Virus record (IMG/VR): IMGVR_UViG_3300037423_001636
Span: 1 to 64,000 of that record
Source of the DNA: a virus
Taxonomy: Duplodnaviria; Heunggongvirae; Uroviricota; Caudoviricetes
DNA length: 64,000 bases
Direction: 5' to 3' (one strand)
Shown: positions 4,413 through 57,293 of the stretch, piece after piece
Numbering within the stretch: the first letter of the stretch is position 1
Layout: each line of letters begins with the position of its first letter
The notes under the pieces: generated by a model
The model's input: only the letters and a program-made list of their open reading frames with translations
What the model was told of the DNA's origin: nothing
The model's database searches: none
Program-made: the position numbers and the translations under genes

Positions 4413-4718
4413 TTGCTTATCGCGAAGGTCTGCCGTACAGACAATGAGTAGCCCAACTACTGACTCGTCGGCACGGTCACATTGTCCTTCCAATTTCCGC
4501 CCACTCTGCTAGAGTCCCCTTTTATGCACCACCGCCACGAAGACAGCGACGATGAATGCGAATGTGAGCCAAACGGCTCATTCTGGTCCTATTTCGGCCA
4601 AGGGCTAGCCATCCTTCTGATCTGCCTCGGCATCGGTGGCCGCACGTGGCTGGAAAAGCACAATGGCCCTCTTGTCATCATTCGTCACGAACGCACAAAC
4701 TGATACAAATCATTCCAA

Positions 4719-16062: not shown

Positions 16063-16589
16063 TGGCTGGCGGGGGCAATCAGACCACCTACGACGAGGGC
16101 ACGCGCCGAGACGCTGAAGAAGTGCGCCGATTTGCGGCCCACATGGGCGTCGAACTCCCCGAACGCTTTGACGGCGACATGCACCCGGCCGCGCAGTGTA
16201 TGAATGGGGCTCTGATGGATATCATTCAGCTGACGAATGCCCTTAGGAATATCGCGTTGACGCTGGGCGTAGATGACTACGAAAAGGCGCGAATGGTGGT
16301 TGAATCGGCTTTGGCCAGTCCATCAATCCTTCAACCTGCCGAAGCAGGCAATCTCTCCGTGAATACGCCCACAAATTCCTCTTCACTCGGCATCACTATC
16401 CCGGACAACGATCCCCGACCCCAGAAGCACGGCGGCCTGCGGCCAATCAAAGGATTGAAGCCCCGCTGCATAGACCCTTCCCATGAGCCACCCACACACA
16501 TAGTGATCCCGCCCGGCTATGAATACGAGCATGTGTGTCCGAGCTGTGGATTTACGATCGTTCTGTGGGGGCACGATGTCACCTTGTAA
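16062..16589 (+). CDS. hypothetical protein with C-terminal Zn ribbon
   Basis: C..P.HEPP.H...H.CPSCG. Confidence 0.6.
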   Translation: MAGGGNQTTYDEGTRRDAEEVRRFAAHMGVELPERFDGDMHPAAQCMNGALMDIIQLTNALRNIALTLGVDDYEKARMVVESALASPSILQPAEAGNLSVNTPTNSSSLGITIPDNDPRPQKHGGLRPIKGLKPRCIDPSHEPPTHIVIPPGYEYEHVCPSCGFTIVLWGHDVTL

Positions 16590-16611
16590 GGCTTGATTTC
16601 TGTTTTTTTAC

Positions 16612-16748
16612 GCTCTTGTATCACAAAACGGTCTAGGGGAATCTGTTCCGGCCGGATGGTCCTCCCTGAGCAGTCCACTGCTGCGTATAGTGGGGCGCGT
16701 GACCAGCGCAGTGATTTCGCAAGGTTCGAGCCCTCGCCAAGAGCACCA
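16612..16748 (+). ncRNA. tRNA-like RNA: acceptor, D and T arms and CCA; 77-nt D-loop insertion; no anticodon arm
   Basis: GCTCTTG/CAAGAGC-A-CCA; TA; TCAC/GTGA; GCAAGG-TTCGAGC-CCTCGC. Confidence 0.75.
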
Positions 16749-16767
16749 ATTTCTTTAACATTCTCTC

Positions 16768-16796
16768 TTGACTGGCGACACAATCTGTGCTCTATT
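16768..16796 (+). promoter_or_regulatory. sigma70-like promoter for ncRNA
   Basis: TTGACT-17 bp-TCTATT with TG extension. Confidence 0.55.
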
Positions 16797-16803
16797 CGCC
16801 TCC

Positions 16804-17112
16804 AACAGGTAGGCGCATGACCGTTCCGCCACTCAAACTAGATTCAGCTCTTTTACAGGAGTAAGTTTCAACTGTATTGCATAAGCGATACCGTTGGAGC
16901 GAAGCTCCAACAACAATTCCAGCCTTTGATCCGTGCGAAAAATCTGTGGTCGTAGCCCAGTACCGCACGGGGAGGCTTACGAATGGACGGCGGTAGCGAA
17001 TTGACCTTTCTATGGGCTAAACGACAGGTCAATAGGGAGCCGCACTGGAGAGTAGCACCATCCCAGTTTCTGACCACACATACGCCCGTGGCACGTCCAA
17101 TCACTTTTTTTT
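16804..17112 (+). ncRNA. large structured ncRNA with double pseudoknot
   Basis: many perfect helices; one loop pairs with two distal segments; ends in T8. Confidence 0.7.
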
Positions 17113-17133
17113 GCCGCCCTCGGGTGCGAAAGC

Positions 17134-17219
17134 GAGCGGTGGGGGAATACGAGCGTCGGGAGAACCGACGACGAGGCGCGACTGTGTGCCTGTTTCGAAC
17201 ACTCTCACCGCTCTTTTTT
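17134..17219 (+). ncRNA. multi-branched structured RNA or terminator-like element
   Basis: 12-bp stem GAGCGGTGGGGG/CTCTCACCGCTC enclosing two hairpins, then T6. Confidence 0.55.
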
Positions 17220-17252
17220 GACAAATCCATTTCCTCCAGTCATGGTTGACCT

Positions 17253-17350
17253 ACAGGCTCTTCAAGGACCGTTTGTGACTAAACGGTCTCTGGCAAGCTG
17301 GACCGGAGCCGTCCTCACACGAGGACCAGCCATGGCTGGGGGATTTCTTT
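17253..17350 (+). ncRNA. small structured RNA with its own promoter
   Basis: TTGACA(17218)-17-CATGGT; helices GGCTC/GAGCC, GACCGTTT/AAACGGTC, GTCCTC/GAGGAC. Confidence 0.55.
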
Positions 17351-17410
17351 GCGGTATAGGGAAAACTCCCCATTGACGAGCCTCTGCTAGTCTGGTAGAG
17401 TGTGCGTCTT

Positions 17411-17884
17411 ATGAATCCAGCCGCCTACATTCCGCTCACCCAATGCGTCAAGGGCAAAATCTATCGGCTTAATAGCCGCAATCTGGAGATCGGCGTGTAT
17501 GACGGCAAAGAGGGATTCATCGGAATCCGGGAGAAGTTCGGCCGTTTCTATCTCTTCACGGAATATCACCACGATCAGGGGCCGTCGGTTGGCACGGTCT
17601 ATCCACTGGAGGTTATTGGCGAATTGCCAGCGACAATTGCCGTCAACGATAGAGAGATCCACGCATGGGGTGACGGTTGGTTCTGGGATATGGAGCTAGA
17701 AATCTGGAAGCCCATAGCTCGCCGCGATCTGAAAGAGGGTGAGGCTCAGCATGGAACGCGACAGGGATTTGTGGACGAATTTGCCGGAACCAACACTCGG
17801 CTTGGCGACAATCAGTGGCCCTGTTTGCGCCGAAACGAGGCGCTATTCGACTACCTCAAAACGCTGGAGGCGCTTGGAGAATGA
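17411..17884 (+). CDS. hypothetical phage protein
   Basis: SRNL..GVY....GFIGIREKFG; boxed promoter. Confidence 0.75.
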   Translation: MNPAAYIPLTQCVKGKIYRLNSRNLEIGVYDGKEGFIGIREKFGRFYLFTEYHHDQGPSVGTVYPLEVIGELPATIAVNDREIHAWGDGWFWDMELEIWKPIARRDLKEGEAQHGTRQGFVDEFAGTNTRLGDNQWPCLRRNEALFDYLKTLEALGE

Positions 17885-35833: not shown

Positions 35834-36328
35834 ATGAACAATCGCAAGAATCAAACTCAATGCTCTGTCTGTGGCGGAAAAGACCTCTCCGCTGAAGAGC
35901 TGGCTGCCCGACTCAAGCTGATCGAGGAGTGGCAGGCCAAACAGATGGAAGACTATGGATTCTACATTCATTTGGTCCCCGATTCCTTTCCAGATCGTCG
36001 GCTTATCAACGCGCATACGCACGGACTACAGTCATTCGGGCACTTAGACCTTCAGCTTGTGCTCAATATCGGCGAGCAGAATATCAAGGGTATTTTCCAT
36101 CGATGTGTTGAGCTGATCAAACAAGGTCGGCAATTCGGCCGAATGGACAACGGCCATTGCATCGACGAGTCTGAGATCGCGCACGGGTATCTAACCCGAT
36201 TCATTTCGGCAATCGAGGACGATCGTCCCGTCTGGCGATTGGTCGTCCCGGACAAAGCGGGAAATCTGGATGAGAACAAGCTTGCGGAGCCGTATTCTCT
36301 GCAATATCGGTTTAGGATGGGTGAATAG
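35834..36328 (+). CDS. DUF4262-like protein
   Basis: HTHGL..FGH.DLQ...PD..G. Confidence 0.55.
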   Translation: MNNRKNQTQCSVCGGKDLSAEELAARLKLIEEWQAKQMEDYGFYIHLVPDSFPDRRLINAHTHGLQSFGHLDLQLVLNIGEQNIKGIFHRCVELIKQGRQFGRMDNGHCIDESEIAHGYLTRFISAIEDDRPVWRLVVPDKAGNLDENKLAEPYSLQYRFRMGE

Positions 36329-36423
36329 AGAGAGGAGCCGTCTGCACAACAGACCGCGCCGCAGGCGCTAAATGAGGTATACACCTCATAGACTCTGCGC
36401 CGAAAATCTGCTAGAGTGGTGGG

Positions 36424-36585
36424 ATGAAACGGATTGCTCTACGCAGCACTCATTCCCGCCGGCACCCCCAGACCGGGGCCGTCTTCCTCGCGACGACCCT
36501 CATTAGCGTTCCGGTCTATTTCGCAAGTGGAATCATCACAGCGGTCCTGTGGGTACTCCTTTTCTTTCTCGCTATCTTCGGCTAA
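36424..36585 (+). CDS. small membrane protein (53 aa, leaderless)
   Basis: translated by hand; ATG 51 nt after box at 36373. Confidence 0.65.
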   Translation: MKRIALRSTHSRRHPQTGAVFLATTLISVPVYFASGIITAVLWVLLFFLAIFG

Positions 36586-39667: not shown

Positions 39668-40420
39668 ACACCATGTTCCCTCGCTACACTCACACCGATC
39701 GCTCTGGCATGAACTGGCGATTCGCCGGCTCGCGCCCCATCTCCGCCCTAGCTGATTCCGTCATGGCAGAATGCGGATTTGAGCCGAGTAAAGATGGAGC
39801 GGGGTGGAAACCGAAAAAGGTCCGGCGTAAGCCGCACAAAACACGGTCCAAATGAGGTCTACTCCTCATTGCGTTCCCACCTGTGAATCTGATAGAGTGA
39901 TGGCGTCATGAAAACCTATCTACTCGTCATCAACTTCTTCAATGGAACCGTGTTCCAAGCAGAGCGCGAGTGCAAGAGCTGGCGCGGAGCCAAGCAATGG
40001 GAGACTAACACGATCAAGCGGGAGACTAAGGCCCGCGGCTCCGACTGGCAAAAGCGCAGTCTCGGAATTAGCAGCTGGCCCGGCAACAATGCGTTCAATC
40101 GGTGGGTGGAGGGGAAAGCGGTAGACTGAATCTAATCAATCATGAGAACCACACGCGCCGAGTTAGATGAACTAGCCGCCAAATGCGGACTGCAAATCCA
40201 GCACGATTGCGGGGGCTATCGAGTCGCGCGGGGTGGCGCTTATCTCTTCCCCGACACCGGCATCTGCCCCACGGCTACACGCAAGGAATGCGCGATATTT
40301 CTCCGGGGCTATCTCGTTGGGGTGAGGAATGTAACGATACGGTCAACAATCTGAAGCAAGGATGATTTGAGTAGTCTACCCTATAGATATTTCGTCCGCA
40401 ATCCATTATAGTCATGCGTC

Positions 40421-42272: not shown

Positions 42273-42515
42273 GCGCGATTAGCTCAATTGGTTCCTGTCG
42301 GCGCTCCGCAAGGAGATACGGCAGGGGTGATAACCGACGAAGACTAGACGAGAGACCCCGATGCTAAGTCTCCATTGCAAGGGATACGACCCGGAGGGCA
42401 CTCAGTCTAGCTAGTAAGCGGCGACTACCTAGAGCGTCATCGGTGGAGCGATCCACCATACACGATGAAGGTTGCCACAGGTCTGAAACGACTGGTTCGA
42501 GTCCGGCATCGCGCA
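42273..42515 (+). ncRNA. tRNA-Val(TAC)-derived RNA with three insertions (138 nt in D-loop, hairpin in anticodon loop, 17 nt in T-stem)
   Basis: GCGCGAT/ATCGCGC-A; GCTC-AATTGGT[..]A-GAGC; TCATC[..]TACAC-GATGA; AGGTT-GCC[..]GG-TTCGAGT-CCGGC. Confidence 0.8.
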
Positions 42516-42625: not shown

Positions 42626-42699
42626 GCGGGGATAGCTCAATTGGTAGAGCACGTCTAAACATGGCGTGGATAGAGGTTCGAATCCTTTTCCCTGCACCA
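42626..42699 (+). tRNA. atypical tRNA (apparent anticodon AAC, Val-like; A33; position 26 missing)
   Basis: GCGGGGA/TCCCTGC-A-CCA, GCTC-AATTGGTA-GAGC, ACGTC-TAAACAT-GGCGT, AGAGG-TTCGAAT-CCTTT. Confidence 0.75.
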
Positions 42700-45007: not shown

Positions 45008-45315
45008 GCGGTAAGCCTACCAATCTCCCTCCCTTCGCGATCTGCTGGTGGACGCACCCCAAACAGCCGCATCGTCGCGCGGCCTACGTGTCCCATCTGC
45101 CCGGCGAGGACGGCGCGGATTGGGGCTATACACCCAATCGGGAGGGAGTGCCGAATCTGAATCTCCCATTTGACCCCAAAGGAAAAGCCCGGCTGGACGT
45201 GGCAAAACCTTTGAATCGATACTGGCAAAGACGGTTTCGAGCTGATTGCCGGGCGACTGGAGTGACGTTCCACAGTGAACCCATATTGACCTCACTCCAG
45301 AATGAAAACCAGTGA
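45004..45315 (+). CDS. hypothetical protein
   Basis: DWGYT...A..L..YWQRRF. Confidence 0.65.
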   Translation: MSGKPTNLPPFAICWWTHPKQPHRRAAYVSHLPGEDGADWGYTPNREGVPNLNLPFDPKGKARLDVAKPLNRYWQRRFRADCRATGVTFHSEPILTSLQNENQ

Positions 45316-56564: not shown

Positions 56565-57293
56565 TTGAAAACACGTAAATGTTACAATCCCTGTAATCGT
56601 GCGCTGGCGCGACCTGAACTGACCCGAGAATTTCTTGAGAAAAAATATATACAAGAACGGGCTACGGTTATAGCGATTTCCAAAGAAACTGGGTGGAGTT
56701 CTACTTTTATCCACAAGAGAATCACTCGGCTTGGAATCAACCGGCCAGAAAAATACAAAGATCTGACTGGTCATAAATACGGGCGATTGACCGTATTAAA
56801 TTTTGAGTCTCTTGGAAAATATGGCGCAGTGTGGAATTGTGTGTGTGAATGTGGCTCACAAAAGAAAGCAAGAGCGCACAACCTAAAAAACGGTAACACA
56901 AAAAGTTGTGGATGTTTGGCCAGAGCTTATGTGGGAAAAATATCGGGAAGACATTTTTCAAATATAAGACTCGGAGCTAAGCACAGAAATATACATTTCG
57001 ATATAACAATTGAAGAAATTTGGGATCTATACGTTGAGCAAAATGGTAAATGTGCCATCAGTGGAGAAGATATTGTTCTGAGTTTAGATAGGGACACCGA
57101 AGTGACCGCTTCACTAGATAGAATAGATTCCAATGCTGGATATACCATAGAAAACGTCCAATGGGTTCATAAAGAAATCAACTGTATGAAAATGGACCAC
57201 CCAGAAAAACACTTTTTAGAATGGATCGAGAAAATCTATCTGTTCCAGAAAACGAAGTCCCCAGTAGTGGGGCTAGTCATCCAACAACAATAA
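56565..57293 (+). CDS. HNH-type homing endonuclease-like protein
   Basis: DLTG.KYGRLTV, W.C.CECG, TKSCGC, CAISG, SLDRIDSN.GY...NVQWVHK..N; visibly more AT-rich than flanks. Confidence 0.8.
   Translation: MKTRKCYNPCNRALARPELTREFLEKKYIQERATVIAISKETGWSSTFIHKRITRLGINRPEKYKDLTGHKYGRLTVLNFESLGKYGAVWNCVCECGSQKKARAHNLKNGNTKSCGCLARAYVGKISGRHFSNIRLGAKHRNIHFDITIEEIWDLYVEQNGKCAISGEDIVLSLDRDTEVTASLDRIDSNAGYTIENVQWVHKEINCMKMDHPEKHFLEWIEKIYLFQKTKSPVVGLVIQQQ

Follow-up and report, generated by a model that had tools for sequence, protein, structure and literature searches.

A gene-free island in a phage genome

The DNA analysed here (hereafter the window) is 64 kb long and starts at the first base of a phage record, which is complete at 205,168 bp and has direct terminal repeats. 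The genome is ~86 % coding, with nearly all genes on the + strand; its recognised phage genes include those for the large terminase subunit, a ribonucleotide reductase and a DnaB-type helicase, and its main tRNA array is situated at 156-167 kb of the record. The large terminase subunit did not have a close relative in IMG/VR, and neither did the 176-aa gene upstream of the region of interest. This is a soil jumbo phage, an orphan among the collections searched. Shine-Dalgarno motifs are essentially unused genome-wide, with GGAGG preceding five of 295 genes, and their near-absence hints at a host with leaderless or Shine-Dalgarno-independent initiation.

The non-coding gap that separates the 176-aa gene from a 157-aa gene (Table 1) is the longest of the window and among the longest of the genome. 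With a codon model trained on the phage's own genome, every ORF in 16590-17400 scored negative or zero, versus +29 and +43 bits for the flanking genes. The two ORFs covering the element studied here did not match any Pfam or PHROG family, nor did they have a homologue among 5.8 billion protein clusters except for the phage's own record, in agreement with the initial annotation, which had found no credible ORF. A decayed gene was also considered, but six-frame tblastn searches of 48 related-phage loci returned matches with E>2 only; this absence of translated similarity, together with the lack of a tRNA-model signal, gives no sign of such a gene. As modelled, the gap would be an RNA island of four folded modules in ~800 nt.

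Table 1. Features of the RNA island and its downstream gene, in window coordinates. Fold z-scores were calculated against shuffled sequences for the + and - strands.
Feature	Coordinates	Strand	Description	Fold z (+ / -)
Non-coding gap	16590 to ~17401		~800 nt, between the 176-aa gene and the 157-aa gene	-5.8 / -2.2
Module A, tRNA-like	16612-16748	+	7-bp acceptor stem, T-loop motif at 16724, 3' ACCA then ATTTCTTT	
Candidate promoter	16768-16796	+	TTGACT (16768-73)-N17-TCTATT; weakly resembles the phage promoter family	
Tandem hairpins	16874-16911	+	GTATTGC-ATAA-GCGATAC, then C, then GTTGGAGC-GAA-GCTCCAAC (16893-16911)	
H1 hairpin	16921-16977	+	14 bp (6+8 bp, 3-nt bulge), 26-nt loop L1 (16938-63)	-3.75 / -2.72 (1 of 200 shuffles reaches the + value)
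H1 outer stem	16921-25 / 16973-77	+	AGCCT / AGGCT	
H1 inner stem	16931-37 / 16964-70	+	CCGTGCG / CGCACGG	
L1 loop segments	16945-51; 16953-59	+	TGTGGTC; TAGCCCA	
L1 kissing segment	16949-16959	+	GTCGTAGCCCA, 5' partner of the putative kissing helix	
Four-way-junction domain	16981 to ~17102	+	122 nt, cloverleaf topology in the predicted MFE fold	-3.21 / -1.32 (16981-17104; 0 of 200 shuffles reach the + value)
Part of closing stem	16984-89 / 17094-99	+	TGGACG / CGTCCA	
P3 hairpin stem	17000-07 / 17026-33	+	ATTGACCT / AGGTCAAT, 8 bp	
L3 kissing segment	17013-17025	+	TGGGCTA (17013-19)-AA-CGAC, 3' partner of the putative kissing helix	
GACCACA	17072-17078	+	Proposed partner in a second pseudoknot, judged fortuitous	
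T8 tract	17105-17112	+	2 nt past the extended closing stem	
Module D1	17113-17222	+	12-bp stem (17134-45 / 17202-13) with two 6-bp hairpins on top, then T6 (17214-19)	-3.98 / -1.86
Module D2	17232-17344	+	17-bp stem with two hairpins atop, then ATTTCTTT	-6.17 / -4.01
Strong phage-type promoter	17373-17401	+	19 bits; 10 nt before the downstream start codon	
Downstream gene	17411-17884	+	157 aa, phrog_3740	

The 157-aa gene belongs to a family with more than 100 relatives in large phages, the closest being 58 % identical to the protein of this phage. In 22 of 39 other large-phage records, its homolog has tRNA genes no more than 3 kb away and is often embedded in an array of 10-22 of them; none of these relatives has a comparable gap upstream. 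An AlphaFold model of the protein (pLDDT 94) is mostly beta, with no fold match in PDB; searches with the sequence did not retrieve any match from PDB, NCBIfam or Pfam. No paralogy was found between this gene and the one that follows a second RNA island, at 42 kb.

Predicted structure of the element

All the pairings quoted in the initial annotation could be located, to within one base, including a hairpin presenting a 26-nt loop (H1), both strands of the stem proposed to close a multi-branched structure, the upstream hairpin GTTGGAGC-GAA-GCTCCAAC and a downstream T8 tract. H1 is predicted with pair probabilities of 0.9-1.0. The multi-branched structure is a four-way junction in the predicted fold, with an MFE of -43.2 kcal/mol and an MFE structure that makes up 14 % of the ensemble. 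Its closing stem P1, GAATGGACG/CGTCCAATC, contains 8 bp and an A.A mismatch (nine positions), with pair probabilities of 0.77-1.0, and is followed in order by a long P2+P3 arm (14 bp, with the 18-nt loop L3 at 17008-25), P4 and a weak P5. In this single-sequence prediction for 16981-17104, the topology is therefore four-armed with the last arm placed directly on the closing stem, an enlarged first arm and a 3-nt spacer ahead of the last arm.

The closing stem encloses 105 nt of branched RNA and is separated by 2 nt from the U8 tract, which is probably the 3' end of the RNA, generated by termination or processing. Runs of at least seven T on the + strand are rare in this phage (nine in 205 kb), and three of the nine are situated inside the two RNA islands. 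Towards the 5' end proposed for the RNA, GTTGGAG (16893-99) could pair with any of three segments, CTCCAAC (16800-06), TTTCAAC (16866-72) and GCTCCAAC (16904-11), leading to mutually exclusive hairpins.

Promoters and neighbouring modules

Module A ends in a CCA and an ATTT trailer that are those of all 23 phage tRNAs, and contains the only GTTCRANYC motif of the island, although it did not match the tRNA model RF00005. The island thus opens with a tRNA-like gene having a CCA end, which places the element in an RNA-gene context. Throughout the phage, the 23 tRNAs (the array at 156-167 kb plus 42626-42699) all encode CCA followed by a conserved (A)TTT trailer, and many carry TTTAC or TTTTC immediately ahead of their first base.

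A TTGACT promoter had been proposed upstream of the element. The hexamer is indeed present, with a candidate -N17-TCTATT continuation, and the site is among the top 70 of ~205,000 positions with a position weight matrix built from 19 phage promoters; nevertheless, its match to the phage promoter family is weak, at 7.8 bits compared to 19-39 for the strong members. A generic promoter scan identified an overlapping 9/12 site at 16755-84. The phage promoter family itself has ~50 copies of the form TGAGG-N6-8-CCCTATAGAC-N18-(A/C)TCTGCTAGAGTG (also written TGAGG..CCCTATAGAC-N18-ATCTGCTAGAGTG), whose upstream half is a small palindrome; copies occur in the window at 4504, 6587, 11964, 17382 and 19000-53000, as well as at 112-126 kb and 188 kb of the record. 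They are usually situated 10-28 nt ahead of a start codon, implying very short leaders. Besides the strong copy that precedes the 157-aa gene, there is another ahead of the 42-kb RNA island.

Downstream of the T8 tract, the island continues with modules D1 and D2, the latter being the most structured of the 638 200-nt windows of the 64 kb. The D2 stem consists of a palindrome present twice, in perfect form at 17326 (14 bp; CCAGCCATGGCTGG) and in slightly altered form at 17236 (CCAGTCATGGTTGA). A role of this palindrome as a recurrent operator was discarded, as it was found nowhere else in the phage genome.

Stability of the fold

The frame 16915-17115 (201 nt) folds at -68.9 kcal/mol, with z-scores of -2.25 on the + strand (equalled by 3 of 200 shuffles) and -0.81 on the - strand. 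Of forty coding windows of equal length drawn at random from this genome (mean z -0.31, sd 1.2), two reached -2.25; taken alone, this frame is in about the 5 % tail of coding windows, a modest signal. Among 638 overlapping 200-nt windows covering the 64 kb, those of the island rank 1, 11, 24 and 42 by fold z, so that four of its nine windows are in the top 7 %, with the 201-nt frame at about rank 42; for comparison, ranks 22 and 23 belong to the tRNA-like RNAs of 42.3-42.6 kb, which are probably genuine. Other 200-nt windows with + strand z-scores of -4 to -5.2 are 36301-36500, 39801-40000, 45101-45300 and 56801-57000.

The putative transcript 16803-17112 had a z of -3.56, which none of 100 shuffles reached. 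The z-scores of individual modules (Table 1) are somewhat flattering, because the module boundaries were picked after seeing the fold. The main helices and the putative kissing helix described below contain only Watson-Crick pairs and could form on either strand, or in DNA; stability is nonetheless clearly higher on the + strand, owing to G.U pairs. These predictions support that the stretch is structured above background on the + strand.

Loop-loop pairings

The two halves of the element may contact each other through their loops. RNAduplex paired L1 (16949-59) with L3 (17013-25) in an 11-bp helix with a 2-nt bulge and an energy of -17.2 kcal/mol, matched by seven of 5000 loop shuffles. For a regional test, the 201 nt were shuffled and refolded, and the best duplex was taken among all pairs of loops sitting on stems of at least 6 bp; the real value was -15.8, and two of 300 shuffles (~1 %) reached -17.2, with 10 of 300 reaching -12. 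In the nested MFE structure, L1 folds into its own local 6-bp hairpin, which competes with the kissing helix. Opening L1 and L3 requires 10 kcal/mol, against 17.2 recovered from the duplex, a gain over the nested MFE of ~7 kcal/mol with the pseudoknot penalty uncounted, indicating that the kissing form is competitive with the nested structure but has no overwhelming advantage. The H1 hairpin and the P2+P3 arm have 14 bp each, and we infer that such equal arms, lying side by side, would bring their loops level. One pseudoknot-type contact, from L1 to L3, is thus plausible from the predicted energies.

The initial annotation had proposed a double pseudoknot, whose second helix would join TGTGGTC of L1 to GACCACA. 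This second pairing was reached by 1384 of 5000 shuffles (28 %), shares GTC (16949-51) with the kissing helix and overlaps P5; its formation would need the opening of P5 and part of P4, at a cost of 9.3 kcal/mol and with a net loss. As a chance-level pairing that displaces P5, excludes part of the kissing helix and has a net energy cost, it was rejected, and the double pseudoknot is not confirmed. Of the two tertiary pairings put forward, only that between L1 and L3 therefore stands.

Comparison with known RNA families and searches for relatives

A search of the whole window with Rfam 15 at gathering score identified only the tRNA at 42626, and the region 16500-17500, examined with permissive filters, did not produce any match at E<=10. 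The families covered included GOLLD, ROOL, raiA, OLE, pRNA, C4 antisense RNA, HDV-like, twister and group I intron. No Rfam family thus recognised the element. The suggestion of a ribozyme- or riboswitch-grade fold was not supported: there was no match to a ribozyme family of Rfam, nor any conserved aptamer. Nor does the setting suggest a riboswitch, since 300 nt, with D1 and D2 among them, separate the element from the next gene, which has its own promoter, and no conserved relatives were found in the sources searched.

The element was also compared with tRNAs. Genome-wide, RF00005 at E<=10 identified 21 places, none of them in 16.6-17.4 kb. ARAGORN with default settings did not find a tRNA in the element, and its calls at relaxed settings disagreed with one another and included no + strand tRNA over 16981-17102; the T-loop consensus GTTCRANYC is also missing from 16803-17112. 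A single-stranded 3' CCA followed by (A)TTT was sought and rejected, as the CCA at 17097-99 pairs with TGG at 16984-86 and the trailer is ATCAC-T8. The closest resemblance in this phage is to module A and to an expanded tRNA-shaped RNA at 42273-42515, which share with the element the predicted four-arm topology with an enlarged first arm, the lack of a spacer between last arm and closing stem, an A-ATC(A)C-T8-type tail and a location in an RNA island of this kind. The element is followed by GTCCA-ATCAC-T8, similar to the tail of the 42.3-kb tRNA-like RNA, GCGCA-ATCC-T8. On the other hand, the element lacks T-loop and D-loop consensus, tRNA-model signal and sequence similarity to them, and its CCA is paired in a stem.

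Sequence searches retrieved no relative of the element. The island had no blastn match among INPHARED phage records, and an exact 26-mer was absent from IMG/VR; blastn and nhmmer against the relatives' loci, three whole related records and the phage's own genome found only the island itself and no paralogue. A single-sequence covariance model of 16921-17100 (R1) retrieved nothing from eight sequence sources or from 39 whole related large-phage records sharing the neighbouring gene family. A 17-mer from L1 had at least 120 exact matches in metagenome contigs, about the number expected by chance, and in the 80 metagenome loci listed for it R1 matched only the word itself. A model of D2 (R2) also retrieved nothing from the same 39 large-phage records, and only itself from the own genome. 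It is plausible that the element is a new orphan non-coding RNA, outside known families.

Nature of the element

Our preferred interpretation, which we hold tentatively, is that a discrete structured non-coding RNA, encoded in an RNA-gene island, has its core in this stretch and makes one kissing-loop contact. The RNA would span ~310 nt of the + strand, from ~16.80 kb to the T8 tract at 17.11 kb, transcribed from the weak phage-type promoter or by read-through and ending at the U8 tract. H1 and the first junction arm, each of 14 bp, would lie side by side and their loops would pair as an 11-bp kissing helix, either locking the two halves of the RNA or, if formed between molecules, linking copies of it. 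Such an RNA could serve as a stable protein-binding or scaffold RNA beside the neighbouring tRNA-like RNA, instead of being a cis regulator. The context formed by the tRNA-like module A, D1 and D2, the rare T8 tail and a tRNA-associated neighbour gene favours an RNA gene.

The strongest competing explanation, although we consider it unlikely, is that the island is cis-acting transcription punctuation, with tandem terminators or attenuators at a unit boundary, perhaps read through under phage control, and a fortuitous loop-loop match. It would account for three closing stems that are each followed by a U-rich tract (U8 at 17105, U6 at 17214 and AUUUCUUU at 17345), for the three alternative partners of GTTGGAG and for the strong promoter that restarts transcription at 17373. 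Canonical terminators of hairpin plus T-run do occur elsewhere in this phage (e.g., at 45610, 85049 and 155145), but these are simple hairpins, whereas the stems of the island enclose branched structures of 56-105 nt, and the T8 and T6 sites were not called by a consensus terminator scan. Moreover, the island starts with a tRNA-like gene bearing a CCA end, which makes it an RNA-gene context, and 800 nt is much sequence for punctuation in a dense genome.

Slightly less probable is a functionless spacer, that is, unselected DNA such as what remains of decayed genes or of a tRNA array; the hairpins and the loop match would then have arisen by chance. The absence of homologues and paralogues is compatible with it, as is the position of the 201-nt frame only in the 5 % tail; besides, the loop pairing was chosen by a reader after scanning 64 kb, and its companion is plainly a chance match. 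On the other hand, the high ranks of four of the nine island windows, rank 1 included, and the strand asymmetry of stability speak against a spacer; there is neither translated similarity to the relatives' loci nor a tRNA-model signal, hence no sign of a decayed gene, and phages seldom keep 800 nt of junk.

There is little to recommend a DNA-level element, in which the inverted repeats would function in double-stranded DNA, as binding sites for proteins or as sites of a replication origin. H1, P3, P1 and the kissing segments are all Watson-Crick, and so strand-symmetric, and D2 contains a perfect palindrome with a near copy; yet G.U pairs make the + strand clearly more stable, the motifs are not repeated at other places of the genome and there is no skew change at the island. 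Least credible of all is that the 88-aa + strand ORF at 16983-17249 is a real small protein gene: it is recorded in a protein collection as a called gene of the phage's contig and has GGAGG 7 nt before its ATG, which carries little weight because so few genes of this phage have that motif, but its codon score is negative, it matches only itself among the protein clusters, and its Arg-rich, low-complexity product would cross the T8 tract and D1.

Relation to other phage RNAs

If the element is a non-coding RNA, as we favour, its nearest kind is the structured RNAs that phages encode beside tRNA islands. The phi29-type pRNA (RF00044) is a small phage RNA with two complementary loops that pair between molecules, hand in hand, over ~4 nt, and belongs to small podoviruses. 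The element resembles it in having complementary loops; nevertheless, it did not match RF00044 and there is no sign of a packaging role.

ROOL and GOLLD are non-coding, richly structured RNAs of phages and prophages, often encoded near tRNA islands, in which kissing loops are central (RF03087, RF01998; bioRxiv 10.1101/2024.12.08.627333). One kissing loop of ROOL, first taken as a tertiary contact, was found to join separate molecules (bioRxiv 10.1101/2024.12.08.627333). The element is likewise phage-encoded, non-coding and structured; however, it is ~180-310 nt long, compared to 600-800 nt for ROOL and GOLLD, and did not match their covariance models at E<=10.

YrlA, a bacterial Y RNA (RF02553) bound by Ro60 (Rsr), carries a GNCGAAN0-1G Ro-binding motif near its 5' end and is encoded on the same strand as the Ro60/TROVE gene, no more than ~4 kb from it (Chen et al. 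2014, PMC4201824). The likeness here is that the phage has both a TROVE/Ro60-like protein and tRNA-like RNAs, and that the element has a stem closing its ends and a U-rich tail. On the contrary, the TROVE gene is ~146 kb away from the element, and a regular-expression search did not find GNCGAAN0-1G in 16590-17401. The best scores for RF02553 in the genome were 13 bits at 160 kb and 11.5 bits at 42.6 kb, with none in the island, and no partner RNA exceeded 13 bits anywhere in the phage. The TROVE/Ro60-like gene is situated inside the main tRNA array (match at 163.8-164.5 kb, within a 521-aa open frame at 163510-165018 of the record), and its match scores 45 bits, or 65 bits with a neighbouring match in the same frame.

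We consider it doubtful, if worth stating, that the element is the founding member of a new class of compact phage RNAs of ~180-310 nt, having equal arms joined by a loop-loop helix of 7-11 bp, either as an intramolecular lock or forming oligomers as in ROOL, GOLLD and pRNA, and made along with tRNA-like RNAs in a jumbo phage that encodes a Ro60-like protein. Large phages have RNA islands beside their tRNA genes, with products that include GOLLD, ROOL and Y-like RNAs, and an unrelated structured RNA in such an island, if true, would imply a repertoire wider than the catalogued families; in addition to the element, this phage has genes for a Ro60-like protein and for oversized look-alikes of tRNAs. 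It would also be a compact test object (<200 nt) for folding or assembly driven by loop-loop contacts, as far as a single-sequence prediction can indicate.

Elsewhere in the record there is another gap lacking coding signal, of 1.46 kb (154453-155911), situated just upstream of the main tRNA array and containing a canonical terminator at 155145.
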